A stretch of 60,077 bases of DNA, counting the filler, from Perkinsus olseni (lineage: Eukaryota), in NCBI GenBank assembly GCA_013115125.1. It is 3 parts of 3 records of this genome, joined end to end, with 100 filler letters (N's around TTAATTAATTAA, not from the genome) between each part and the next. Parts side by side here need not be neighbours in the genome. Positions count along the whole stretch, not along the records: positions 40,152 to 60,077 come from JABANN010000590.1; 2 more parts are not named here. One strand, written 5' to 3'. Below, piece after piece: positions 1,796 to 50,489 of this stretch. Both the position numbers and the translations under genes were made by a program. Numbering within the stretch: the stretch's first letter is position 1; each line of letters starts with the position of its first letter. The notes under the pieces were generated by a model, which did no database searches, was not told where the DNA came from, and was given only the letters and a program-made list of their open reading frames with translations.

Positions 1796-3571
1796 ATGGC
1801 GGGCTACTTCGCGGATATGGTCATGCAGCAAGCGATCAATGACAAGATGAAGGCATCAGCAGCAGGGGACACAACGGGGTTTGGTATGAAGGTAATAGAT
1901 GTAGGCTGGTGGGGTCGAACCTGTGCGGAGTTACTGCTATTGCGTGGTGATCTTAGTACTCGCTACCCCCTCAAGTCGCGCTGCCGAGTGGCAAGAAAAG
2001 AGGGGAAGAGTCTTCTGACGAAACCGATTCCGACAGGGACAATGAGAAGGCGGGGAATACGGACTTGGACCTCGAGGCTATTCGCGCTCAACGTACGTGA
2101 TCATCCCTTCGGAGCGGTATTATACTCGTGCGATTATCGGTTCATAATTTTGGAGGTCGTGGGTTCAACTCCTGGCGGCAGAAACTCGCTCGATTCAGCC
2201 TCTTGATTATTGCAAGTCTAGTCTGAATGTGAATTCCCTTGAGAGAGCAACTAGCAAGAAATCAAGAGTGGACGAGCGCTCGTCGTGTATAGCGTTCTAT
2301 TGGTAGGGCTTGCTAAACTGAAGGCCGAACACAAGGCAGCCGCAGAGAACCGTGCCAAGGGGCATGGCGAGCTGAATGAGATCACTGAGGCTGAGTTTCT
2401 GGACACTGTGACGAAGAGTGATAAAGCTATAGTAGTAGCGAAGGCAGCCATACTCTATTAACCGACCATCGCCACCTGGCCAGAGACTCGAGGAAATCCA
2501 CCGAAGTTTGGTCTTGGGAGACTGGCCGCCCTCAGGTGCACTTTTATCATCGCAGTTTTAGAAAATGCAAAGTCATTGACAAGCATCTCGGCCTGCTAGC
2601 GCCATCACTGCTTGACATCAAGATGGCTCGGGTGAGAATTAGAACGTACTATAATGCTTTCATTCACGTGCTCGCTGTTCGGGAATTGGCCGCTGATTCC
2701 TTCAACCTAGAGAATGGTCAGAAGGACGACATATCCGCGATTGTTGTGTAGTTGGACGCCCAGAAGGCGCCGTTCTTCGTGGAGAGGCTCCGGATCAGAG
2801 TGCTGCCGACCACGGTCTTATTCGTCAAGGGAATAGCGGTAGTGAAGAGGTTGCATGACTAACTGACTCGTCTCCGCCGAGAACGGATACGTAGATCGCT
2901 CTTCTCCGGGATGAGGGGCTCAGTTTGATCCGTGCATGTGGTCGTATGGGCAGCATTTTGCAGCAGAAATACTCAATAGCGTTCTCGAGTCTCTTCTGTG
3001 TAACCAACTTCAGTAGCCGGTCGCCGGGTTGCATGAGCTCATGCCGCCCCTCGCGCGGGTAGGGAAGGCCACGCTGGCCTTTCAGGTATATCACATCGTA
3101 GGGTTCGAGGGTCTGCGCTGTATAGATGGCGAAGATATCACCACTCTCAGTCTGGCTAAAGTATTTCGCGCGCCCCGAAATTATCAGGGAGGAGCTCTAG
3201 CAGGTACTCTACGAGAATGACATGGTGTCTGATGGCGAGCTGGACAACCTTGAACGTAGGCGTCCGGTCAATGGTCAGATCGGTTGACGTGCAATCGCCC
3301 ATGTCATGCCTTTCTCGTTGCCGATTGTTGTAGTGATACTCATAGCCGTCCGTCGTACTCGGGGCGATTGTAGAGATTGTAAGTTCCTATGCGGAGAAGG
3401 CATCTCAGGAATATGCTTTCCCAATAATTCCGTAAAGTGGTTCGGCCGAGGAGAATGAGGATGGTGCTGCCGGCAGCCTACCGCTGCTGCATCTCAGGTA
3501 CCTTCGGCGCTGAGCATAACCGAGCCGAGCAGGGAAGTGTGGAAGTGGACGACGATGATGAGTTTAATTAG
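1796..3571 (+). CDS. Phosducin-like thioredoxin-domain protein (TXNDC9/PLP3-like), multi-exon
   Basis: Exons read KGHGELNEITEAEFLDTVTKSDKAI-VHFYHRSFRKCKVIDKHL...LDAQKAPFFVERLRIRVLPTTVLFVKG...IVGFEGL. An acidic tail ends at TAG 3569-3571. The 3' exon boundaries are approximate. Confidence 0.88.
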
Positions 3572-7684: not shown

Positions 7685-7766
7685 CGACAGCGGCAGGATT
7701 CGAACCTGCGCGGGCAGAGCCCAGTGGATTTCTAGTCCACCTCCTTAACCACTCGGACACGCTGTC
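7685..7766 (-). tRNA. tRNA-Ser(AGA)
   Basis: Reverse complement GACAGCGTGTCCGAGTGGTTAAGGAGGTGGACTAGAAATCCACTGGGCTCTGCCCGCGCAGGTTCGAATCCTGCCGCTGTCG forms a full cloverleaf with a long variable arm and anticodon AGA, followed by a TTTT Pol III terminator. Confidence 0.97.
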
Positions 7767-20000: not shown

Positions 20001-20100
20001 NNNNNNNNNNNNNNNNNNNNNNNNNNNNNNNNNNNNNNNNNNNNTTAATTAATTAANNNNNNNNNNNNNNNNNNNNNNNNNNNNNNNNNNNNNNNNNNNN
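20001..20100. other. Artificial contig linker N44-TTAATTAATTAA-N44
   Basis: A six-frame stop spacer flanked by 44 N on each side, identical to the one at 40052-40151. Confidence 0.97.
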
Positions 20101-20171
20101 GGTTCTACCGGGATTTGAACCCAGATCGCCAGATTCAGAGTCTGGAGTGCTAACCGTTACACCATAGAACC
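20101..20171 (-). tRNA. tRNA-Gln(CTG)
   Basis: Reverse complement GGTTCTATGGTGTAACGGTTAGCACTCCAGACTCTGAATCTGGCGATCTGGGTTCAAATCCCGGTAGAACC forms a full cloverleaf with anticodon CTG. The discriminator base is cut off by the contig end. Confidence 0.96.
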
Positions 20172-22462
20172 GTCCACAAGGTAGTCCAGGATGGTACCCC
20201 GATCCAGTTGTGCCCAACAACTCCGCTCCGCCGTACATCTATGTGCATGCGTGCACAGCGTAAAATCGATCAAGGCTGCGCGAGCGAGAGTCACTCCAAT
20301 ACAAAACCATAGAATCGGCTCTCTCACGGGCTGAAACAATGTTGTAAAGCGTTCAGTATCCCGTCGTGCCCTATGATGTAGTCGTAGGAAGACACGCCCG
20401 TTTGTCGACGCGATATGAGCTAGTCCCCATCGTCGCCCGTTGTTCCCGCCTGTGGGTCCCACGTTGAAGATAGGGGAGTCAACCCAATTAGGTTGAGCCG
20501 AATTCGCATACTCGGTGATGGATCTCATCGGGTCAATGCTTGTCGCTCGGTAGAAAGAATCAAATCGGAATTAAACGGTATCTCTCTCGCTCTACCGAAT
20601 TGGTACCACCTGTCTTTCGATACAATCTACTCAGTACTGTCAAGTCAGAGAGACTCTACCAGGTCGCATTCATTGAAACGACTCCAGAGGTCCTGAGTTG
20701 AATTCTGAAATGCTAGGGCCTTTAGGCCCCGCTTAAACGACCCGATGGGGATTCAGGCAGATGTTTTCGTTCTCGGTTATGATCAGCGTACTTAATATCA
20801 GTACTACTACCGCCAATGCGTACTTATTAAGATCATCCACGTATGATATATACGTGTCACAGGGGGAGTGATAACTTTTTAACACGACCGATGCATAACT
20901 TGAAGCGAAAGTTTAATTACTCGTGATCACTCTCGATGTCGGCGGTAGTAATTCAATTTGGCTATAAGAGATTCTTCTTCTTTCAATAAAGACGGCAAGT
21001 CCGATATCGCCTGATTAACAACAACTCACAGTCGTAGCTTTCGAGGGCCTAACCTTCAACACCCTCGAGTGGACGTCCCTCATGCCCAGCACACAATCGC
21101 TCAAAGCCTGGGATGTCTCACAGCATCGGGGGCAGCCTACATACACTGAGCCCGAACAAGGCAATTGTCTTACCACCCTACCAGCCCTAAGAAGGCTATT
21201 CTCCTTCTGTAGGGAGGCTATGGTTTTGTCGCGCTCTCGGAGCTGATGAGAGGCTTTCGTTGATGATGCACCAACGTTGTATACTCACCATCACTTGCAG
21301 CCTTTCGACTTCTAGTGGCTCAACGCCCAAGTTGCCGGTGCTACCCGACCGTTTCAGTAGGGACGGAGCTGGCCTTGGTGGGGACCGATGGCGAAGTCTG
21401 ATACGCCACCGGTGATCATTAGACGAAAAAAACATCTGCCTTCTCACCCTCTGGTCAACTTTGGAGGCACCGACTTCGATGGCACGGGGCTTGGCAGCAG
21501 TTCTAAGATACTTCCCTCGGAAGGTTGCTCGACATCCCTAGACGTGCCTGATGCGTCCGCCTAGCCTCACTGGATTCGGCCACGGTGGGTGATACATCTT
21601 CTGGCTCGGAGGAGCAGACGGGAAGGCGACGGAGTCCGATGCTCTGTCGAATGGGAGACTCTGTCCTGCACCTCAGCCAACATATGCTTCAGCGTATCTA
21701 TCATGCATCGACCTTGGATACTTTCACTGGGTCAGGTGGACAACCATTAAAAGATTCCAGTGTCGCCTCATCCTCCGCCGTGACAGTACGGCCTTTATTG
21801 AGGACATGCTGGAAGTGCTGCAACCTAGTTCGATGCCTCGTGAAGGCGCTGATGTCGGGAGGCGGTACCACACCCTGACCAAATCAGAAGGAGCCCCGAC
21901 AAGACCAGCTGTCGTTACTTCGACCAACTCGCCGTCGACTGGGGCGGTGAGGATGCGATGTTGAAACTGACCAGGGAAAGGGCGTTAGTTGGGCCGATCT
22001 CAAGGCTGGCTACTTTGAGTCGTTCCAGCACCTCCCGGCACGAGTTCATATCGAGAACTCGGGATGAGTTGGTAGTAGGCCAATGATCACCGAAAGGAGT
22101 GGTAGGGAAGGCTCCTCGGGCTCGCGGCGGAGTGAAGGCCTCCGTCTGCTGCTGCTGTTGGGTGTGGCGGGGTGAGTAGTTGGTAGAAGACATTGTACGA
22201 TGGTAATTGACGGTAGACAGCAACTACCGTCAGCAAAGCTCACCACAGGCTTGTAATACCACACCAAACGATACTCTCAGAAACTTGAGCATCAAATTCT
22301 AGTGTAGCTCCCTTCCAAGACTGCTGCGTCTACTCGCTGCTGCTTTAGAGTAGTCAATAGTCGACCGAGTAAGCAGCCAAGAACGAAGGTCGTGATGGTC
22401 CACAGCCAGAAAAATCGCCCCCTGAGCGGAGCGATACGCCCGTGCCTCGACTAAGAACCCGC

Positions 22463-32849: not shown

Positions 32850-33439
32850 CTCCGCCGGGCGAATGAGTAGCTGCGAGGTGGGCTCCTCCGACCCTCTTGG
32901 ATACATCCATGGTGTCGACCCGCAGGTACGAACCAACTGAACCACAACAAGGTGGACAGAACGACGTGAATGTTAAACTCTTCAGCTGAGGACTTCCCCC
33001 TCAGCCTGTAAAGAGTAAAAAAAATAATACTTAAATTCCTAGTGATAAAAATGATAGATTTTTACCGAGCATAATATATATCATTACTAACCTATTTCCT
33101 AGTATATACAAAACCCAGTGATGAGCAGACAACAGCCACTACAATGCCTGATGAGCACACTTCCTCAAAACCCCACGACCACCCCCTAGCGAAGGGCCGT
33201 GTAGACAGAACCAGTGAAAGCGTCAAGACTCCACCTCAACGGTATCCTGCAGCTCCGGTCTGGCCATTAGGTCAGAGAGTCTGCTCTCTCCAAATTTAGT
33301 TTCCGACAGCTGCCGATGGCAGTACTGTGAGATCATGTTTTTTATCCGACCTGATGACACAGGCACAGGTTCGATCCCTGGCAGAGGCGTTTTTCCCTAC
33401 ACATGCTGATCGAGCCCGAGGTCTCTATCTGGAAGATAA

Positions 33440-35877: not shown

Positions 35878-37623
35878 TCAGGCGTAGTTAACGTGGATTC
35901 TTCGGCCGTTCATATCGCCACCGTCGTAAAGCTCAACTGCCTGCCTGGCACCGCTGGGGTCTGCAAAAAGCACCAAAAGGAATATCATCATAGTAACTCG
36001 CAGTTCATGTATGCGTTAATAGGAAGTTCAAGTAGAGGAAGACCAGAAGGTCGTGGGTTCAATTCCCACAGGTGATAATATATATATCAAATGCTCTGCA
36101 TGTGCTTGTCGATACCCAACAGGAATATCTTCCAAGATCTCATCAGAAAGCTGATGATAGCTGAAGCTGAATTCACTTGGCAAAAGCCAATACAGTGGGT
36201 CAAGTCTTACAGCAATAACAACACTTCAACCTAATCTTCCGCAGGAATTTTTTGCCGCTCTCACAGCTTCAACCAATGTCTCTTAATCCGTATCAAGGGG
36301 GGCAATCAGCGGCGCTTTATTAAAGCATAATAACCGTGATGATAGAACAAGACCTATTGCCTTTCTACACGACGACGACGACGACGACGACGATGTTAAT
36401 GAGGAGGTCAAGTCTTGACGAGTCGAGAGTCCAGTGGTAGTAGTAGCAGAAAATAGCCGCCCAGAATCGAGATCCGCCTCGGTACCGGAGAATGTCAAGT
36501 TGGCGCTAGCGCCCTTGGGTCCTGATGAGTCAACTTCGCAGTGGACGACGGTTCCAACACTCGAAAAGGCCTGCTTGATCTCGCGCCAGGTAAGGTCGTA
36601 TGGTATGTTGGTGACCACGACTCTTCTCCTGCTACCACCACCGCTGTTGCCAGCTCCTCCCCTTGACTGCTGTTGAGCCGCTGAGGCGTTGTTGTTATTG
36701 TTCTGCTGCCTGTAACCAGTGTCGTTTCTAGCATAGTAAGAGCCGCTGTTGTTGTTGTTATCGTAGTCGTTACCGCCACGGTTATCATGTTGATTCCAAG
36801 ATTGATTGCCCCCTCTGCTGTTGTTGTTGCCGCCCCAACTGTTGTTGTTGTTGTTGCCGCCCCAAGATCCGCCCCAACTCTTGTTGTTGTTGTTGGAGTT
36901 GCCGCCGTAGTAATAGCTGCTCTTCCCCTGGTTACGATACCCCCCTCCTTGTTGCCAGTTCTTGCCACCACTGCCATACGAAGACGACTGCTGCTGCTGC
37001 TGTTGCTGCCATTGGCCACGATTGTTGTTGTAGTTAGCCGGAGACTTGTTGTAGGGTTGGGCCGCGACCTTCATGTTAGGACCACGACTCTTACGAATTG
37101 GACCGGAAGTCTTCTTGCCACCGTCACCACCACCAGCCGCGGAAGTCCGAGCTGGACGCTTGGGCCTGACCAAATACGAATTCTCAGCACGCAGGCACAA
37201 CAAAGATAAATAGCCTCTAAAATAACGAAGTTCGCCTCACTAACGCACAGTTCACTGGAAGATAAGAGTAGACGCTGATGAAAAGCTCGCTCGAAGTGAG
37301 GGCGGGACGAGTTAATAAATAATAAACAGCACGCATGCACAAGGAGGCCTACCACTGAGGAAACATCCCCTTGGCCCTTGAGGGGACCCGAAGGGGTCTT
37401 TTGCGTGCACCCATAGCAACTACAAGGAATCCTCGCGCGAAGTCGATTATGGGATGCCAATTGACTCCAAAATCAGCCCAAACTGCTACCGAATCCAAAG
37501 ATTCCTTCCGACGCGCTCATTCTATTTGAAGCCATGATCGACCTTGGATACCCCCCATTACTTCTCAGCAGCCACGATGTCGTCCAAGGACATAGTGAGC
37601 TTCTTCTCAACGTCAATGGTCAT
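35878..37623 (-). CDS. ALY/REF/Yra1-like RNA-binding protein: N-terminal UAP56-binding-type motif, N/G/Q/Y-rich region, C-terminal RRM
   Basis: Exon 1 reads MTIDVEKKLTMSLDDIVAAEK (LDMSLDDII-like). The RRM RRVVVTNIPYDLTWREIKQAFSSVGTVVHCEV...ANLTFS is completed after a ~525-nt intron by DPSGARQAVELYDGGDMNGRRIHVNYA*. Confidence 0.8.
36369..36393. repeat. (GAC)n microsatellite in an intron
   Basis: acgacgacgacgacgacgacgacga. Confidence 0.85.
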
Positions 37624-40051: not shown

Positions 40052-40151
40052 NNNNNNNNNNNNNNNNNNNNNNNNNNNNNNNNNNNNNNNNNNNNTTAAT
40101 TAATTAANNNNNNNNNNNNNNNNNNNNNNNNNNNNNNNNNNNNNNNNNNNN
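40052..40151. other. Artificial contig linker N44-TTAATTAATTAA-N44
   Basis: Same spacer as 20001-20100. Confidence 0.97.
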
Positions 40152-40494
40152 GCGTACACAACACTTTCACCAACGGGAAACCTCGTTGGTCGGACCCAAG
40201 CGCCGCGAGTGAGAGGATTTAACACTTGGTTGTCGCCCCCGGACACGAATACGGCCCTGCCGTGTAGAGTGGCGAGGATTTGGTGCCCCCAAATCGTGCA
40301 TTCCCTAGGTTATAGGCCCAATGACTCCGGGGAGGAGAACGATTACTTGACGGAGAATGCCATCGGCCATGAACCCCGGGCACTCGAATTTGGTTACGCT
40401 GCGGGTTTCTTGATGTTTGGCGGCGTGGTCATTATGTAGCGCTTGCCATCGAGAGGGAGCCGGATCAATCCTCTGGGTTGTCACTTCTAAATTT

Positions 40495-40785
40495 ACTTCC
40501 TCAAGGAGCTCGTAAGCCGGGAGCAAGCTGGGTCCGGGCACACCTACACTCCTTACGCTCCTTGCGTAAGGTCCTCAAGGAGCGGCTCCTAAATGTTATA
40601 AGTAGCGGCTCCTTAGCCCCTTTCCTTAAGGACCTTACGTAAGGACCTTGAGGTCCTCACTCTAAGCAAGGAGGCTAAGGAGTCCTTAGTAAGGACCTTA
40701 CGCCCCTGAGTCTCCTCCTTTCTTAAGGGAGGAGGAGCTCCTACCTTAAGGAACCTACGGTCCTTCCTCGAGGAGAAGCTCTTAT
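40495..40785. repeat. Palindromic patch built from CCTTA/TAAGG/AGGAG motifs
   Basis: Dense overlapping palindromes: ccttaagg, taaggacctta, ccttacgtaagg, ctaagga-g-tccttag, gtcctta-g-taaggac, aggagctcct. Confidence 0.7.
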
Positions 40786-41211
40786 TTTATAGGGTCATTG
40801 TTCCCGCAATCTGTGCTAGCTGACCCGATGTGGGATCTGAAAGCGACACGAACCGGGGGGGGCTACTAGCCCCGGGCTAGAGCCTTCAAATGACACCATT
40901 CGCCCGTGTACACGCAATGAGCTGTTAAACTTCAGCCACTCAACTGAAGAAGCAGCACAAGTGTTGGGCGAGTCGTAGGAGAACTAACTCTAATAGGACC
41001 AGTCCGCGATTGACGAACATGATAGGGCGGGAAGAGCCAATATATGAGAAGGCCCTTCTCAGAAGAAACAACTAAGAGAATAGCTAACTAGCAAAGATCG
41101 ATGAACTTCATACGCGTACGCATATGCATTGGCGCCGCGCCGAACCTGAACGGCTCTACTAACAACTCTAACAATCTCGAGACTGGCTTACCTGCAAGTC
41201 TGAGGGTCTAC

Positions 41212-41724
41212 ATGCGTTACGCTACTCTACCTCTCTGTTTGGCTGCTGTGGCGGAGCTCGTCCAAGGGCTGTCTGCATGCCCTACAGGAGATGCTCAGTG
41301 CCAGGTCGACGACCCGTTGTCGTACTGCAAGTACTACCTAAGTGCGCCCGTCTGTAAGGGCAGTAATAAGTCATGCTCGTGTATCACTCCGCCCCCTCCA
41401 TGTCCCGAGGGTGATGCTTACTGTCAGCAGGTTACCGGCGATCCAGCTTCTTACTGCAAGGCTGTCTGGCAGTTCGGGCCTGGAGGGGGCGTCTGTCAAG
41501 GGTCTGACGATACTTGTACTTGCGGTGGGTCTTCTACTACTCCCGAGCCAACTACCGGCGAGACTACCACCCCTGAGCCAACTACCAGCGAGACTACTCC
41601 CCCTGGGCCAACCACCCCTGGGCCAACTACCAGCGAGACTACTCCCCCTGGGCCAACTACCAGCGAGACTACTCCCCCTGGGCCAACCACCAGCGAGACT
41701 ACCTACCCTGGGCCTACTTCTTGA
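41212..41724 (+). CDS. Secreted protein with two 6-Cys repeats and a mucin-like Thr/Pro tail
   Basis: Signal peptide MRYATLPLCLAAVAELVQG; two repeats of C..GDA.CQ...SYCK....VC.GS..C.C; a tail of 30-bp units encoding PTTSETTPPG (about 41548-41715). Confidence 0.85.
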   Translation: MRYATLPLCLAAVAELVQGLSACPTGDAQCQVDDPLSYCKYYLSAPVCKGSNKSCSCITPPPPCPEGDAYCQQVTGDPASYCKAVWQFGPGGGVCQGSDDTCTCGGSSTTPEPTTGETTTPEPTTSETTPPGPTTPGPTTSETTPPGPTTSETTPPGPTTSETTYPGPTS

Positions 41725-42533
41725 GAGACGACTTCGTCGATTACCACGACATCCGCTTGACAATTCTGCCATATTCACGATGGAGTGCACGAGCTGCCCT
41801 CGTAAGCAGTCCTTATAAGTGTGCCTTTACCATTGTTAAAGACCGGCTGTGCTAGGTTCGAATTGAACCGCGTAACATGTCAGGCAATTTGCCTGTTGTA
41901 AAGTATTGTCACGCAGCATGAGGTCAATGACGCTCAACATTTTCAGCTCACTCTCTTTTCATAGATATACAATCGGAGTTGTATATGACGCAGGGTAAAT
42001 CGTTCATAGTGGCTTCGACCTCCCAGCCCAACTCATCTTGCGTTTAACGTCATATTGAAGCGTTGCCGGTGGGCGCCGCAGCCGTGGGTTCAAGAGTCCT
42101 CACCATTCTCCAGTGTGGCTTCCTCCATATTTCTCGCTGTGATACTGCGTTATGCCACAGATCGACGAGTGGTCTAAGCATATGGTCACTGGTCATGCGG
42201 CCCTTATGACTAGTCCTATCATACGACTCGTATGCGTACAGCAGTTGTGCAGTCTATTCTTTCGTAGCGTACAACAAGCGTTGCACGTGAGGTGAGACAC
42301 TTACTCTTACCCTTCGTGGCCTACCGCACTGGCAACGCTATGCCACAGGGAAAATGTTAAACTTCTCCAGTGCCGCCGCAACAGGAAGCAAGCGAGTTAC
42401 CCTTCCACTCGCTCATGGTACAGCTTACGGTCAATGCTCCCAACCAATGAACATGACAGTTTGAAATGCTCAAGAAAATGAGGAGTCACACCGGCATGCT
42501 AACCGTCGCTTTCTGCATTCAGCCGAAGCCAAG

Positions 42534-45500
42534 CTAACCTCCACGACAGATAACCCCTGCAGCTCAGTTGAGTAACGTCGGATAAGCTCAACCTACCGAC
42601 GAGAGTAGCAGCGTCCCTGTCCTTGAGTGCCCTCTTGCATCCAGCGACCACCGCGGCCTGGGCTCTCCCGACCCGCAGATTCGCACCTACTCGGTTCGCA
42701 AAGCAGCGCAGGTACTAACAAGCGTACCGCGATTAATCCAGAGGTTCAGTTCCCTGAGCGCTTCGAGAAGCATTCCGTGGTTCCCACGCCGTTTGCTATA
42801 ACTAAGAGGGTCAACATGCCAAGGTCGCAACGGAGGGACTTCTACTCAGCGATCATCCCTCGACTGATACGATGCACATTGACAAGCGCTTGTCTCAGTT
42901 TTCTCGAGTAATCACAAAGCCTGAGATCTTCCATCCTCACAAGCAACTCTTTCCTGAGGAACACCCTGAGCCTTGCCCGGCCGAAGGTTGATGAACCTAC
43001 ACTGCGCGGGCAGATTCCGCCATGTCCGCCATCAACTTTTGTCGGAGATCGTCATACTCATCAACTAGCAGCATGGCCTGTTCGACCTCTGCCGTGGCCC
43101 TAGGGAAACTGGGAGCCGAACCTCCCCGAGCCACCCAGCGGGTCCGACCTACCTGCAGGAGGCCTCCAATTCCGTTACTTTGAGGAAGCAGCAAAGATGT
43201 TGTATCTGCGTCCGAGGAGCCTTCCGGTTCACGCGATACCTAGGATGTTTCCTACCACGTCAGCTGCCAGCTGCATGCAATCGGTGGTTATACTAACCGA
43301 CCCATCAACCTTCATAGCGATCTCCAAGCCCAACGCCTCTTCATCTGCAGACCTGGCCCTGACCAACTACTGAGCGTCACAACAACCGCAAAGGGCTTCA
43401 CTTCCGGCAGGACACGAATGCAACTTTCAAGAACTCTCCGGATCCCTCCTTGAGAGTCTTCGGCCAGTCGGCCATGAGGAAGCTTTCGCGAATCTGCGAA
43501 GGGCTCGGGCGAAGAATGTCGATCAGTCACTACCCAGAGTTGAACCTTCTCAATCCTCTCGGTTATCCTGAAGCTCGCGCTCCTACGGGAGGACAGATGA
43601 GAGCCCGACTTCAGCGCTGAGGTCACCCCGTTGGTGCGGTGCCGCCATGCTCCTCCAGACTCGAACCAACATACCGGTACATGGCGAATCGAGGTAGCTT
43701 GATCTGAGCCTCGAGGACGGTATGCTCCCGGCCTGAGACGCCGCCCTCTCTCCCCGTCCTAGATCTGTCCCCCAGCTCACTAGCCTTGGTGACGCCGGTA
43801 ATGCATTCGACTGTCAACGTCGTTTCCACATCTCTAGGGATTGGTAGTTCGACCTGCTCAGCAGTAGTCCTCGTCGAAGGGCATTCTACTAGTGCTGTGC
43901 TCTAGAGTCAGATTTCGCGACTCGCACCATTTCGAAGCATGAGAGTAGTACGCCACGAAACTGTACGAGATTTGTCTTGGCCACCACTTAGCCAAGTTCA
44001 ACCGGGATACGGCCTCTTAGGCCGTAGGACTACGAGGTCAATAGAGAGTATCGTTGCGTCAGAGAGGGAAAGATAAGGATATTAAATTCAAACCGAGGAG
44101 ATCCAAACGCACCTCGAGCTGTTTAGCCGGGGGCTGCGGGCTCACAACGTGCCCATCTGCACCGTAGAGGCCCTCGGCGGTAACGACAACCTCGAGCACC
44201 AAGGGTGATATTGATCGCCTGCCGTGGTCTTTACTTTTTGAATGACACCCGTTGGGACAGCGAGTCGGAGGGCTACTCCCTTGGCTGAGTCAACGACCAG
44301 GTCCGCGGCGAGGATGCCAACATCAGGCCCGGAGGCGTCTTTCTTGATCGTCGTTTCATCGAGGACCTCGAGAGGGCTAAGTTATTATCAGTGGAAATCA
44401 GCGGCTTATCACCGGGAGGTCGTCGACTGGCGCTTCCGAACTCAGCTGTTCCGTAGTATTAGAATCCGCTGGTTCGCTTCTGAAAATCTGTAACGATTCT
44501 TGCTCCGGCGTCTCTGAAAATCGCCATGCGTGTGAGTAGTCCATGGCGGCACGCACCCTCTCTTGACTGAGGCATCCAAGCGTGCACGCGACCCTGAGAT
44601 ATCCATCTGCAGCCAGACATGCCACAAAGACGCTACCTCGATGTCTATCGTCATCAACACCGGCACAGGGCAGCCAATGTAGTCCATGGTCACCACGCCG
44701 GCGAGCGGGTCCGGCCCTACTCGGCTCTTGAAGATGACCTGCGTGTCATCGAGAGCGCTGGGCTAGGTCCCATGGCCATCAACCTGTCCGTTGCTTTGTT
44801 CTCTGATCTCTACTAGCCCGTTCATCCAACCGATGGCGAGCTCCATGCGACTTCGATTATTCTCCTCAGTTTGAGGAGAGAAGGCCAGCAAACATGAAGG
44901 GGCGTGACGTGACCGAACCCGCCATAACTGAGGTAGGATCAATTCTTCGACACAGACGATGGAGACCCAACTACACGCTTAGCTCCCTCATACACCCCTA
45001 CTGTTCCATTTGCCAAACCGTATCCGAACCTGTTCGAGTACTTGCTTGGAATAAAACTTGGAAAGCACCACCTTCTACCGGTTTCGATGGTCCAAGGAAA
45101 CGAGGTGGCACACCGCGTCTGCCTCCGTGATGTCAGCGACGACTTCAGCCTCTCTTGCTAGCATACGTATCTTACGGGAGCCGTGCAACCTGAGCTTTTT
45201 CCGGGACGGTTCACCTGGTAGTCATCCGTGCCGCAGATAAGCACTGATGTGGCGAAGTGATGCTGTTGCTGGTCCTCTGTCGGAGGCTTCAACGACTCTA
45301 GAGCCATTACGCGATCTCCGGTGATCGTCCAGAATACTTCACCCCCTCCTCTATCGAAGCCCTAAGAACTGCCTTCCACAGGATGGCAGCCACAAAGTCC
45401 TGCAATACTCTAATATTGCAGTCGCCGCCTGCTAGGACCACCGACCCTCCGCCCTCGACGGCTGAGGACCCTGGAAGGGCGTCGGCGATCGATAGTGCTG

Positions 45501-46334
45501 AGACACCGTCCGGCATATCTCTGTAGAAAACGTCGCTGTTACGCTCGACCTGACGAGGCAATGGTTTGGTGACTTGGGTTGGCCAGACTGACGTCGTAAG
45601 CAGACAAGCTGCTGGATGTAGCAATACAGAGGAGGTCAGGTCCAGATTCGCCTTCGCTTCTCATCCAAGTCGCTAGGGCGGTAATCTACCGAGCATGGTG
45701 TCCACTAGGGAATCTCTTTTTCCTGATGGACCTTCTTGTTCACGTTGAGCTGAACAACCTTCCTCTCGCCAGCGGAGGTCGGAGTAACAATCAATACCTG
45801 GTCACAGGGTGGGAGGACGATTCCCGTGATGATGAATGGACGACCAAAGAGGGTGGGGCGACCAATTCTATTCGAGTGTAAATCGTGAGTGTGAATCAGT
45901 TCGAAGTCCAACGTCGTCACCGGCATGATTTTGATATACCAGCAGCTCAGCGATGAGCTCTGTGCTGTGCTATTCAGTCAGCTGCCGAATGCTGCCGTAA
46001 CCAGCGAAAAGAACAGACCATCATCTCATTCCCCGGGTCATTAATGGTCTCACTAGATGCTACTTTGCCCTCAGCAGTGCCCAATGCCAGGCTTGTCGCG
46101 AACTTCCCCTGCTCCTCCTCGTCCGAGGTGAACCTTCCAACGGTCGCCAAGCCCCGTACTATTGAATGGTCTCCGTCGACCGTGAAATTAATGGCACGTT
46201 CGAAGTGCAGCTGTTCGGTTGCCATGGGCAGGGCTAGACTCTGTTCCGACGTTACTATCGCACTTTACCAACACAACACAGTAGTGCTTTTGAGTACCCG
46301 ATTGAATACTTGAACTCTCACTGGTCTCGGGCAT
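42534..46334 (-). CDS. BBS2: Bardet-Biedl syndrome 2 protein (BBSome subunit), multi-exon
   Basis: LATVGRF..SLALGTAEGKV, NSDVFYRDMPDGVSAL, VLAGGDCNIR..GGEVFWTITGDRVMAL, VVADITEADAV...FGYGLANG, LVDEYDDLRQKLMADMAE and LRVGRAQAAVVAGCKRAL follow the order of conserved BBS2 blocks as I recall them. The start is approximate. Confidence 0.85.
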
Positions 46335-46759
46335 GATTGAGAAAGATAGACGATACAAGTAAGAATCTATACACTTTTCTCTACTACCATAGCCAAGAGA
46401 AGACACGCACAGTCAGTGGCCACACAGTCCCGGTAGCGATCACTTTGAGAGACACTCAGTACTACTACACCCTTCCAGGTGAAGGTGATTGACAACTCGA
46501 CCTCGGCGATGAGACCACGGGGGAAGCTGGTTGCAGTATCGGAAATCGGGATGACCGTTGGCCAGGGTAATAGTCAATCACAGAGGAGAAGGACAGTTGG
46601 CGGGAATGTTAACTTGAATAATAATTCTTGGACGGACGGACAATCATCATCACAATGTACGAGATATCGCGGCAAGGAATAGAACCCGCAACCTTCGACG
46701 TCATAGCGGGAACACAGCACTACTGCGCCACCACATCGGCCGACGATAGAAGAGCGCAT

Positions 46760-48021
46760 TCAGAGCCTGGACCCATGGCTGACCATGCCCGGCATCGCTG
46801 TCTCGTCAACTGGCTGGTTCACAGACGAAGAAGCACTTGCGCTGGTGGAGGCAGACGAGGCGTCTTCGGGACCGTTGGGTGTCGGCCAATATTCACGATA
46901 AGCAAGATGGGAACCGACCAGACGAGTCGTCAACCAGGGGTAGTAATCTTCGTCGACTCCTCCTCCCAGATACGCTGGCAACTCGCTTGGCTCACCTGAT
47001 TCAGGCACTCAGACAATGTAACGACCCAGGTTCAATCCCCGGCGAGGACAACTTACACACGCCCGCACACCATTCAACATCTCCATCATGTGTTGTATTG
47101 ACAAAGGTCACAACCTCCGTCAACGACGAGGGCAGGAGAGGCGACACCGCCGCCCACGCCGCCCGGAAGATGAAGGGCGCATCCACGAACATGACTCGAC
47201 TGATGTGGGAGATGTGACCCAAGCCGACGGCCCTGAGCACAGCAACAGCCACGAGAACTGAGCGCGGGTTGCCGACGCCTGACCACCTACAGTGCCCCCT
47301 TCTTGATATCCCCTACATTCAAGGTGATGTTCTTAAGACCAATACCAGCGAAGTCATACACCAGACACACGCCGAGACGGACCGATGCAGGGTCGGCCAA
47401 GGCCGCGTCAAGCGCCATCCAGGTGGACTTGATGCCTGAAACAAAACCTTCGCTGTGCGCACCGGGGGAAGATACTTACCACAGAGTATCGGTATCGCTG
47501 AGGGTGCCATAAACCTCATCCTAACCCATCCCATCGGCCGACCGTCGAGATCTCGTCCAGCCTTGACACTGAAACCTGCCGAAAAAGGATAGAGACGAGG
47601 AGAGTAGCGGAAATATTTTCAGCTCACCCGCGCTGAAGTTACGTTGGATCTCGGATTCCGGTATCTCTCGGATTGGTAGTTTCTTGAGAAGATCTTCATG
47701 ACGCCATGCCTGAGTTAGAAAGATGCTGGGTTCGAACCCACGACCAAGGCCATGCAATCCGAGCACCGTAACGAGCCGAACAAATGCTCCCTTAAACGAG
47801 CAGTGCTTACCAAAGCCTCGGCCTTGTTCACATCTAGATTACGCGCCCAAGCCAACTTGAGCCAGTCGTGCGTGACATACCTACGAGCACCCAGGTTCGA
47901 ACCCCACCCGCTCCATCCGAACCCACCTCCTGGTGAACTCTAGATTCTTGAGCCTCTCTCTCAGCTCACGTACGCACATAAGCTCGTCGGGTGTGAGGTC
48001 ATTATCGTCCTTACAGAGCAT
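46760..48021 (-). CDS. CRAL-TRIO (Sec14-like) lipid-binding protein, 7 exons
   Basis: WLKLAWARNLDVNKAEAL, GRDLDGRPMGWVR, VCLVYDFAGIGLKN, ISRVMFVDAPFIFRAAWAAVSPLLPSSLTEVVTFV, ELPAYLGG. Confidence 0.88.
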
Positions 48022-48998
48022 TGGTACCTTAGACACAAATTCGACCTGCGGAGCTCGATGATGATGGTGGCAGCACCTCGATACTCGGCATCACTTCGCC
48101 GTTCTCCATACGTTCCAACAGAGGTTCATTCAGGTCAGACCTGGCGAGAGGTCCCCAGTTCGATCCCTGGTCACGACATTTTTACCTACCCTGTAGATAC
48201 TGTATAAAAGCTCTGCATCGAATCCACTCTTCCTCTGCGCGGAGTCATAGCCGGACTGTTACGCTTGGAAGACGCCGCAGCGGCCATCATGGCGTCGCTC
48301 TGAGCTCTCCACCTAACACACCCGACCCTCCATTGTCGTCACGCGCCACGAAATGTTGGCATCACTTCGCCCTTGCCGCTCGCAATGTACTAGACTCCCT
48401 CCTCTGTTTCTTAATGCCCTTCGTCTTCTTCAAGTAGTTACACAAGAGCCAACCCATGTACATCGCGAAGGCGCACAACACCGCCGTATGCACCTGAGGA
48501 GAGCACCCGATGCAGTTCTATGCGGTCTCCTCAGATGCTCTCCTGTAACGTCGAGCAATTACGCACTTCTCTCTACTTAAAGGACGATTCCGGCTTGCAG
48601 ACCAATATACAACAACGCGCACCCCTCGAGTTTCTCTAGATCTCCTCCATGCAGAAGATGCTAGTTAACGCAGAGTCGCGGACTCTCTTTAAAATTTCCA
48701 TCTGCTGGTATACATAAATTGGTCAGGAGATTTAACCACTGTACGATCACATGAGATGGTATTACTATATATTAGTGAAGACCCCCGATTAAAATATGCG
48801 GAATTTTTCACCCGAACGATTATGTCCGTATTATTATCACCTTATACTCCAACGTGTAACCGTCATACTCCAGGAACGGCTGGCAGCTGTATAAGGCGCT
48901 TGATGACTCTGCAGGCTTGCCCTTGCATGAGAAGTCCGCCAAGAGCTCCAACAGGATTAATGGCGCATACCTGATGCACCGCTATGGTCATCGATACC

Positions 48999-49063
48999 GG
49001 TCTGATAGCGTAATGGTTAGTGCGTTGGTTTACGCAGGCGAACACCCCGGTTCTAATCCCCCT
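48999..49063 (+). pseudogene. Degenerate tRNA (Val-like) with A box and damaged B box
   Basis: GGTCTGATAGCGTAATGGTTAGTGCG...TTTACGC...ACCCCGGTTCTAATCCCC. The D-arm pairs but the anticodon and acceptor stems do not. Confidence 0.55.
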
Positions 49064-50489
49064 ATTATTACAATAAATAAAGCACGCATGCCGTTATTGT
49101 TGCAGCTTTGCTCTCCTGCATTTCCCACGCTAATAATGCGAAGCTTGCACAGCAGATGAGGATTGACCGGAGCAGATACCTGCACGATTATGGGAAGTTA
49201 TGGTATGCACACATACACGTGACAGTAATACATGGAAGAGGGTGATACATAGTACATCTCCTGAGCTTTACCATCAGTAATCAACGACACCACTGAGTCG
49301 AAAACTCCGACCATACCGACCACCTGAACGAAGGGCTCCATCCGGCACGCTAACGCCCCCGGGATATGTACTCGTCCAGCGGAAAATGACGCGGGGAATT
49401 ATGACCAATAATAACAACCTCGATGACCACTGTACATCCGAACGCGATATTGGACGGTCAGAGAATGGCCAGCGAAGATGATAGAACACTGAGTTCAGCC
49501 CGGTCTTTACTACCAGCCAGATGAAGGAGTAGGTCCGTATAGAATGAGTAAGGCGATTGATGTCCATGCTTCGTTGGAACTCGGCATGGGTTGCTGCCGG
49601 TGGTCGAGCATCGGCTCGGTACTCCGCCGGAGTGAAGCCTTCGTTGGGGAAGTACATTAAAACAGCAACCGCGGGTACTACAAACTACAGGATACTATCT
49701 CTTCTCGCGAATACTGAACTCGACAGTCTGCTTAGCGGAAACGAAAGCTTATCCGTGAAGCGTGATAGACTACTCAGCGGCAGTAAACCATGGAGGAAAA
49801 CAACAGGCAGGGGCCAACCGATTGTAGAGAACAGAATGAATCCAAGATCGCTGTGGCGCCAATAATCACGGAGTCAAGCCCAATTGATCCCTGCGATGCT
49901 TCTCCGTAAAAAGGAGGGGACCATTCTCACAAAAACACGAAGCATCACCGCGGGAAAAGTAGGGCATCCTCCACAGCGTCGAACTTCCTCTCATGGTAGA
50001 GACGCAAATCCACCAGTCCTCCCTGCGGACCCTGGATCCAGCGAACTATGTCGCTGCACGAGAGGCGCCCGTTCCCAACATCACTCCTAAGGTAGATACC
50101 GATTCGAAGGCTGTCCTCATCGCCCGCAACTCAGACTCTCTCAAAGACATTCTCTTCGACCAGCATATCACTCAACCCGATGCGCTGGCCTCGGTCCAGA
50201 CAGGCCGATTAAAGTCTGTTTTCTGATGAAAAAGTAGGAAATGCGAGGAATGATATCTCGGCCGCCCTAATTGCAAATATAAAAACCCGGAACCAGTCCC
50301 GTGTAAAGGACCAGTAGTGTTGGCCGACCTCCAAAACCATCCTCAATAGGGTGAAATGCAGAAACCTAAGGAAAAAGATTTTAATCTCCTCAATAGACCA
50401 CTTGAGGCATGGAGGAAATCCAAGATACTATAAGAAAGCAAGAGTGTAGTTCGCCCTGCACTGGGCCGCAACCATCATCACCAGTATTC

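Follow-up and report, generated by a model that had tools for sequence, protein, structure and literature searches.

The locus under study is a CRAL-TRIO gene of Perkinsus olseni, encoded on the minus strand of a 60,077-nt stretch of genomic DNA (the window). RNA contigs from four public runs were aligned to positions 40200-60077, and the gene model was built from the joints listed together with two annotated proteins. The model comprises an mRNA of 2180 nt with 14 exons and 13 GT-AG introns, and encodes 564 amino acids between an ATG at 49657 and a stop codon near 46760. One RNA contig across the gene spans 46301-49674. Among the joints listed, 7 of the 13 introns are directly joined in all four runs, and the remaining six are supported by an exact fit of contig sizes: the model predicts 2171 nt for 46301-49674, the length of one contig (X2 record 7), and 1964 nt for 46513-49679, where a second contig (X7 record 17) comprises 1964 nt plus eight spliced-leader letters. 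The mRNA is trans-spliced to a spliced leader with an acceptor at about 49679, the position at which the contig bearing these eight letters ends; its loose end, TGAGCCAA, matches the antisense of PmaSL1. An initial annotation of this DNA had given the gene six introns, a number that the RNA contigs and proteins raise to 13, with the gene extending to 49679. The introns it had placed at 46996-47056, 47710-47810, and 47881-47926 are indeed minus-strand GT-AG introns whose removal keeps the reading frame. The first is directly joined in RNA in all four runs (Table 1); the other two have indirect support from the contig sizes of 2171 and 1964 nt and from proteins P0002, P0003, and P0004.

The P. 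olseni protein P0003 is identical (100%) to the translation of one exon in the window, and the same translation is 91% identical to the P. chesapeaki ortholog P0004. P0003 matches the Pfam CRAL_TRIO domain (PF00650) at 41.7 bits against a cut-off of 22.6. A metagenome scan for relatives of the protein returned 371 pattern matches, none of which was confirmed. Introns account for 1203 of the 3383 nt of the CRAL-TRIO gene and for 1286 of the 2168 nt of another, or a third to half of the genes modelled in the window. The majority of introns in these genes measure 43-65 nt. For P. marinus, introns are reported to be mostly shorter than 100 bp (PMC3101222).

T-arm relics across the window

The three tRNA T-arm strings quoted in the initial annotation were re-read in the sequence and were found where, and in the orientations in which, it had placed them. 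They belong to a set of 12 stretches in the window, hereafter relics, that resemble the T-arm region of a tRNA without being tRNA genes (Table 1). The motif GGTTCRANYCC occurs 10 times in the window against 0.41 expected, and none of 100 shuffles reached 10; with one mismatch allowed, 31 matches compare with 14.0 expected. Hairpins of T-arm form with at least four of five pairs number 13 against 2.5 expected, the maximum in 60 Markov sequences being 6. A covariance model of the T-arm and eight flanking bases on each side, trained on 11 relics and two tRNAs and searched with filters off, returned all 13 training sequences at 20.7-30.2 bits together with one new copy at 52396-52428, for a total of 12 non-tRNA copies and 2 true tRNA genes. 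E-values of the relics range from 1e-3 to 3e-6. No window match fell between 11.5 and 20.7 bits, and no tail of half-decayed copies is visible. All 12 copies carry a T-arm with the B-box consensus, which is also the sequence feature of extra-TFIIIC sites in DNA; at the GGTTCRANYCC-type positions of the B box, eight relics have no mismatch, four have one, and none has two. At 12 copies per 60 kb, the relics are six times as numerous as true tRNA genes.

Table 1. The CRAL-TRIO gene, relics with their host introns, and true tRNA genes in the window (relic scores are those of the T-arm model)
Feature	Positions	Strand	Support and remarks	Score (bits)
CRAL-TRIO gene, P. olseni	46297-49679	minus	RNA contigs of four runs and annotated proteins	
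CRAL-TRIO intron 3, 101 nt	48971-49071	minus	joint 48967>49069 in 4/4 runs	21.4
CRAL-TRIO intron 6, 49 nt	48141-48189	minus	junction STG/SDLNEP in P0003 and P0004; RNA contig size arithmetic	26.3
CRAL-TRIO intron 8, 46 nt	47881-47926	minus	junction TRR/YVTHDW in P0002-P0004	26.9
CRAL-TRIO intron 9, 101 nt	47710-47810	minus	sense relic	25.1
CRAL-TRIO intron 13, 61 nt	46996-47056	minus	joint 46993>47055 in 4/4 runs	30.2
CRAL-TRIO 3'UTR relic, tRNA-sized, sense	46665-46737	minus	acceptor pairing 6/7	25.7
Thioredoxin-domain gene intron 2, 65 nt	1892-1956	plus	spliced map of P0007	20.7
Thioredoxin-domain gene intron 3, 214 nt	2093-2306	plus	spliced map of P0007; sense relic 2151-2183	27.5
OHA-domain gene intron, 50 nt	33351-33400	minus	junction SISMC/RIKNM in P0010 and P0011; splicing restores the junction	25.1
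RRM gene intron, 525 nt	35961-36485	minus	junction NLTFS/DPSGARQ from P. marinus P0006	30.2
Relic past stop codon	52396-52428	minus	found by the T-arm model only; E 1e-4; outside the training set	24.6
Relic with perfect stem	53329-53361	plus	genomic context unclassified	28.8
tRNA-Ser(AGA) gene, comparison	7685-7766	minus	true tRNA gene	59.1
tRNA-Gln(CTG) gene, comparison	20099-20172	minus	true tRNA gene; adjoins masked N	66.3

Within the CRAL-TRIO gene, relics occupy introns 3, 6, 8, 9, and 13, and a sixth lies in the 3'UTR. The three relic-bearing introns described initially are therefore real, but the count was too low, since 5 of the 13 introns carry a relic in addition to the one in the 3'UTR. 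Two further relics had been described as flanking the gene. Both sequences are present, but neither lies outside it: the one at 48143-48183 falls inside the 49-nt intron 6, and the one at 46665-46745 is placed in the 3'UTR. Six of 12 relics within 3.4 kb is improbable for a single window, at about 2e-5 per 3.4-kb segment; across an entire genome, equal to roughly a thousand windows of this size, chance could produce such a cluster about once. The locus was also picked for looking clustered, and we give the clustering little weight. The suggestion that clustered B boxes are selected at this locus found no support as a property of the locus, given that like stretches occur in introns of three other genes of the window.

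A repeat search of 45500-50000 found nothing common to the relics beyond the T-arm core, and no terminal inverted repeats, tail, or body. Acceptor strands differ in nearly every relic, and the copies align with low mean column identity once the T-arm is left behind. No target-site duplications were found; AG/GT flanks occur at 10 of the 13 CRAL-TRIO introns, whether or not these hold a relic. Within this one 60-kb window, the relics thus lack the near-identical copies, terminal repeats, or target duplications of an introner family. They likewise lack the body and tail of tRNA-derived SINEs, and their units fit introns of 46-101 nt. The relics are neither a usual introner family nor a SINE.

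tRNA-like marks and departures from a tRNA

The tRNA origin proposed in the initial annotation gains support from several features around the T-arm. An RGGTC-type variable loop precedes the T-stem in several relics, a spacer of acceptor length leads to a discriminator, T5 directly follows the discriminator in 2 of the 12, and one (49006, intron 3) has a canonical, correctly spaced D-arm. No relic has CCA after the discriminator (0/12). With CCA missing throughout and T5 present in two copies, genes or primary transcripts appear to be the source rather than mature tRNAs, and retrocopies of mature tRNAs are ruled out by the same count. The CCA that ends the third string quoted initially is no added tail; by register, it is acceptor strand plus discriminator. 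Remnants of primer-binding sites of LTR elements are also ruled out, as the copies extend past the T-loop and are without TGG.

Most relics are 5'-truncated, although the copies in introns 3 and 9 and in the 3'UTR appear to be full length. Of the 12, only those in intron 9 and the 3'UTR reach an acceptor pairing of at least 6/7. Across the window, D-arm-like motifs are no more frequent than expected (7 against 7.0), which fits a population of mostly 3' fragments. The antisense copy in intron 3 is a nearly full-length tRNA-like sequence running from intron position 3 to about 75, with its D-arm located by the D-arm scan, an anticodon-arm-like stem with ACG, and a T-arm at 49046-49062. The sense relic of intron 9 is tRNA-sized (about 47716-47791); its T-arm falls at intron positions 70-86, and 7 nt separate the 3' end of the relic from the AG.

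Standard tRNA searches do not recover the relics. With Rfam RF00005 (gathering score 29 bits), the window yields no match besides the two true tRNAs. None of five relic contexts of ~110 nt, those of the intron 3, intron 9, and 3'UTR relics among them, had a tRNA match at E<=10, and the 3.2-kb CRAL-TRIO locus gave no tRNA match for any relic; the context of the relic in the RRM intron gives a local T-arm match only. ARAGORN at its default and 90% thresholds reports only the two true tRNAs in the window. Lowering the threshold to 80% or 70% yields 48 and 256 matches, respectively, mostly noise and run without a control; the three relics among them, including that of intron 9, which matches only at 80%, were not counted as evidence. 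Given the Rfam result, it is the T-arm region and a few further features that carry the case for a tRNA origin, and from these we infer that the T-arm stretches probably derive from tRNA genes.

The T-stem itself departs from that of a working tRNA. The three outer T-stem pairs are intact in 19 of 36 cases, against a mean of 18.5 for permuted halves (P 0.49), whereas the B-box positions are preserved much better than the stems. If the relics were simply recent copies of working tRNAs, their stems should pair, so an extra assumption is needed: either the copies are mosaics, or decay has bypassed the B box. The outer stem triplets fall in a few tRNA-like classes (GTG four times and CCA three times; TGG four times and CAC twice), and in two relics the 5' and 3' stem halves belong to different classes. 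The combination of mismatched stems and a kept B box may reflect mosaics joined in the T-loop, selection on the B box, or sources that were never good tRNAs.

RNA folding finds no excess structure in the relic introns relative to shuffles. Seven of them gave z-scores of -0.47 to +1.15, like eight other short introns, and none of the 15 lay beyond -0.9 or +1.15 (the OHA-domain intron having been entered as 33350-33399, one base off register). Because there is no fold signal and splicing removes the fragments together with the intron, we take the relics to be inert at the RNA level, with no detectable RNA-structural role.

Placement of the relics within introns

Confirmed introns of four genes contain nine of the 12 relics, seven antisense and two sense to the host gene; outside the CRAL-TRIO gene, the introns were defined from protein junctions. 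The junction of the OHA-domain gene is seen in two proteins, one of them from another species. Of the relics outside introns, the copy at 52396-52428 follows the stop codon of a plus-strand gene by about 40 nt, in antisense orientation to that gene. Nine further RNA-supported introns in two other genes of the window hold no relic. As introns may form about half of the non-coding DNA here, the intronic position of 9 of 11 classified relics indicates no clear preference for introns.

All six antisense relics in introns no longer than 101 nt have their tRNA 3' end toward the donor, with 1, 6, 8, 11, 11, and 11 nt between the first intron base and the complement of the discriminator; the regularity of this offset was noted post hoc (roughly P 0.01, n=6). 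The remainder on the acceptor side ranges from 10 to 75 nt in the same introns. The donor GT of intron 3 complements the two bases directly after the acceptor strand. The T-arm of intron 13 occupies intron positions 15-31, with 6 nt from the start of the donor to the discriminator complement, and that of thioredoxin-domain intron 2 (antisense relic 1900-1932, minus strand) occupies positions 17-33. In the longest host, the RRM intron, the antisense relic (36045-36077) has a perfect 5-bp stem and lies 92 nt from the acceptor.

Three relic introns, of 46, 49, and 50 nt, have the T-arm at exactly positions 20-36. Intron 6 consists of a donor hexamer, A5 (an antisense T5 terminator), the antisense discriminator and acceptor strand, the antisense T-arm, and 13 nt to the AG. 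Its near-twin is the OHA-domain intron, in an unrelated gene, which runs from the donor through A5 and 8 nt to a 13-nt antisense T-arm core. The pair has a common layout: a GTAGG-type donor is followed by A5, by eight bases that differ, by a 13-base antisense T-arm core that does not, and by a final 13-14 bases up to the AG; the difference between their acceptor strands suggests two different tRNA sources. In intron 8, the antisense T-arm is preceded by a second, partial T-loop-like copy that forms the first 11 nt of the intron. Across these introns of 46-50 nt, the donor hexamer, antisense terminator, and fragment make up nearly the whole intron. These introns leave no space for a 5' half, and the neighboring exon is coding sequence conserved in P. 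chesapeaki.

Origin of the relics and comparison with known systems

The origin of new spliceosomal introns is a long-standing open question, for which introner transposons and rare captures of foreign DNA are the well-documented answers. The reading we prefer, with a probability of about one half, is that tRNA-gene fragments have inserted recurrently in this genome, invading short introns and probably creating the shortest ones. The relics would be fossils of the 3' part of Pol III tRNA genes, comprising the variable loop, the T-arm with its B box, the 3' acceptor strand, the discriminator, and sometimes T5. Mostly 5'-truncated copies of different tRNA genes or their primary transcripts would have been inserted repeatedly into transcribed DNA. 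In antisense copies, the bases just beyond the tRNA 3' end would serve as the GT donor or adjoin it, and in long introns the fragment would be a passenger, removed with an ordinary GT-AG spliceosomal intron.

For the introns of 46-50 nt, insertion most likely made the intron. Gain of introns from such fragments is plausible, and capture or intronisation appears to be the most attractive origin of these three. Insertion into older introns would need near-exact loss of the older sequence three times with a like result, for which reason we favor, with moderate confidence, birth of the intron by insertion. A more specific scheme is tentative. About 40 nt, made up of the 3' half of a tRNA gene in antisense and the terminator of that gene, might land in a coding exon and be spliced as a minimal intron of 46-50 nt via a donor directly beside the terminator. 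Such a process would be recurrent and stereotyped and, at the density seen in the window, would amount to thousands of introns per genome. Under this scheme, the swapped T-stem halves would be traces of template switching, during copying, from one tRNA to another in the conserved T-loop. PMC3706591 reports unusually many tRNA genes in Perkinsus, with more than 500 genes of five tRNA types in P. marinus. This number implies a large source pool and does not by itself explain the fragments.

Trimming offers a second route, possible though doubtful, in which the relics are tRNA-gene fossils, whole or in fragments, that entered existing introns; deletion then shortened these toward a preferred size of about 45-60 nt, leaving nothing but the splice signals and part of the insert, and no intron was born. 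Insertion into existing non-coding DNA certainly happens, as relics in the 214- and 525-nt introns, in the 3'UTR, and beyond a stop codon attest, and the three relics that look full length fit this route. Introns of mostly 43-65 nt here, and of mostly <100 bp in the P. marinus report cited above (PMC3101222), are compatible with a length optimum toward which trimming could proceed. Against this route, deletion would have to remove the original intron body near-exactly without losing the insert, on at least three occasions, and each time with the T-arm ending up at positions 20-36. Random trimming would also not be expected to give introns in two unrelated genes the same twin layout.

The well-kept B box invites a different explanation, that the B box itself is selected, with the relics being candidate extra-TFIIIC-type sites or sites of another factor reading the near-palindromic GGTTCGAANCC core. 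We consider this unlikely. The T5, the discriminator-like features, and the fixed place beside the donor have no role under such selection. The outer stem triplets are not randomized and fall in a few tRNA-like classes, which argues for youth rather than long decay around a preserved core. Selection would account for B-box positions that are nearly intact beside outer T-stem pairs at the permuted level, for the lack of half-decayed copies between 11.5 and 20.7 bits, for the failure of Rfam to recognize the rest of the tRNA in all five contexts, and for six copies in one 3.4-kb gene, but part of the contrast between B box and stem is ascertainment because the copies were largely found via the B box.

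Less probable still is a single mobile family, either an introner or a micro-SINE with a tRNA-derived head, that carries its own splice sites. Such a family would explain the twin introns in two unrelated genes, the non-canonical stem halves common to some pairs (e.g., CCAGC in 47725 and 52404), and the TCTNNTAC-type trailers after two relics. It is opposed by the restriction of shared sequence to the T-arm core, by acceptor strands that vary in nearly every copy, by the low column identity outside the T-arm, and by the lack of terminal inverted repeats, target duplications, tail, or body. Chance resemblance in GC-rich short introns, for which only the shortness of the motif speaks, has a negligible probability, being refuted by the shuffles (10 matches against 0.41, reached in 0/100), the hairpin count (13 against 2.5), and model E-values of 1e-3 to 3e-6.

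If recurrent insertion of tRNA-gene fragments is the true explanation, these fragments would be an added source of introns that is abundant in every cell. The question of intron origin would become directly testable, as three Perkinsus species are sequenced and culturable and the presence or absence of introns can be scored among them. Should the B boxes be selected instead, they would be the first hint of sites for polymerase III factors inside alveolate genes. Even with neither intron birth nor selection, the finding would account for a strange sequence feature that is very frequent in Perkinsus introns and escapes tRNA finders.

Introner elements occur in Micromonas, Aureococcus, dinoflagellates, and Amoebophrya. 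Introner DNA, as described in PMC7789003, becomes a spliceosomal intron on insertion into unrelated genes, with splice signals at or beside the ends of the insert, a pattern that the relic introns probably match. Introners, however, are near-identical copies with inverted and direct repeats, whereas the Perkinsus relics have only the T-arm core in common, appear to come from different tRNA sources, and show no end repeats. Extra-TFIIIC (ETC) sites of yeast and human are B boxes without a tRNA gene that are known mainly from between Pol II genes. The relics are like them in that a well-preserved B-box consensus stands alone, outside any working tRNA, and unlike them in lying inside introns, mostly antisense and with tRNA-like flanks.

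Human nimtRNAs, nuclear look-alikes of mitochondrial tRNAs, are intronic tRNA-like sequences in protein-coding genes that are reported to affect splicing (PMC7722341). They are mitochondrial in origin, full length, and folded, whereas the Perkinsus relics are nuclear-type T-arm fragments with no cloverleaf and no fold signal. Dada DNA transposons of P. marinus, described in PMC3706591 as 4.7-11 kb long and inserted within tRNA genes at the A box, show that Perkinsus tRNA genes are numerous and a hot spot for mobile DNA; nothing resembling Dada adjoins the relics. Searches of the full-text literature returned no account of tRNA-like Perkinsus introns or of tRNA-derived introners.

tRNA pseudogenes and tRNA-derived SINEs have their origin in Pol III tRNA genes, as the relics probably do, and like the relics they retain the B box and occur dispersed through non-coding DNA, introns among it. 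In contrast to them, the relics have no SINE body or tail, form units of about 35-75 nt, and mostly lack the 5' half with the A box. The relics are also missed by default ARAGORN and by the Rfam tRNA model, and they hold a stereotyped place relative to the donor. This antisense, donor-abutting layout of tRNA fragments in introns is new as far as the literature searched extends.

T-arm-like sequence and its two stem classes

The halves of the T-stem fall into two classes, GTGGG with CCCAC and CCAGG with CCTGG (T-arms 2159, 47891, 36053 and 53337). Two copies combine the classes: 2159 joins GTGGG to CCTGG, and 47891 joins CCAGG to CCCAC. Judged from these pairings, the halves look swapped between the two T-stem classes. 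Across the relics overall (tRNA T-arm stretches outside true tRNA genes), T-stem pairing was the same as that of permuted halves.

Further T-arm-like traces were observed in two introns of the CRAL-TRIO gene. At intron 8, a stretch made up of the exon end and the first 13 intron nucleotides recurs at intron positions 13-32 as a diverged direct repeat, and the pattern GGAG..GTGGG..TTCGRA is common to both units; the T-loop region appears to have been copied twice at insertion. Intron 7 contains GCAGGTCGAATTTGTG, similar to a sense T-arm minus one base. This stretch, which scores under all thresholds applied, may be an additional, more decayed relic or a chance likeness.

Positions of features along the stretch
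Feature	Positions	Strand
Masked run of 44 N	20001-20044	
Masked run of 44 N	20057-20100	
Masked run of 44 N	40052-40095	
Masked run of 44 N	40108-40151	
Fused model P0010	33232-37623	minus
Last RRM exon	35881-35960	
Deep-contig region	40863-42188	
210-aa ORF	41092-41721	
Intron 8	47881-47926	minus
Intron 7	48028-48076	minus
17-nt direct repeat	48087-48103, 48358-48374	
Exon missing from P0003	49072-49179	minus

Features elsewhere in the window

Two of the four masked runs flank the tRNA-Gln gene on its 3' side, and the trailer of this gene is therefore unreadable. The protein P0010 (626 aa) joins the RRM gene to the OHA-domain gene that lies downstream of it, and it omits the last RRM exon, which is part of the P. 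marinus model P0006; an annotation merge is the probable cause. In the deep-contig region, contig depth is very high (up to ~36,000 in RNA run X1), and each of the four runs departs from the window at 41465, 41484 and 41529, all three being fixed differences. An ORF of 210 aa within the region lacked a Pfam match. The region could encode an RNA that is highly expressed or multi-copy.

RNA contigs at the CRAL-TRIO gene and spliced-leader sites

One CRAL-TRIO exon, present in the RNA contigs and in the P. chesapeaki ortholog P0004, is missing from the public P. olseni model P0003, which measures 525 aa against 564 aa for the RNA-based product. P0003 also takes another donor at intron 12, giving GSTVGGQA instead of AL.

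Contigs from runs X2 and X7 depart from the window sequence at 48076, the exact donor of intron 7, and at 48357 (57-68 and 255 unlike letters). The 17-nt direct repeat adjoins both points. These departures could reflect an alternative 5' exon, or else sequence from a different haplotype or from a paralog.

At 49679 and 59733, loose contig ends start with TGAGCCAA and match PmaSL1, the Perkinsus spliced leader, in antisense. The two positions mark where the spliced leader is joined in trans to the transcripts of two genes on the minus strand, as trans-splice acceptors.
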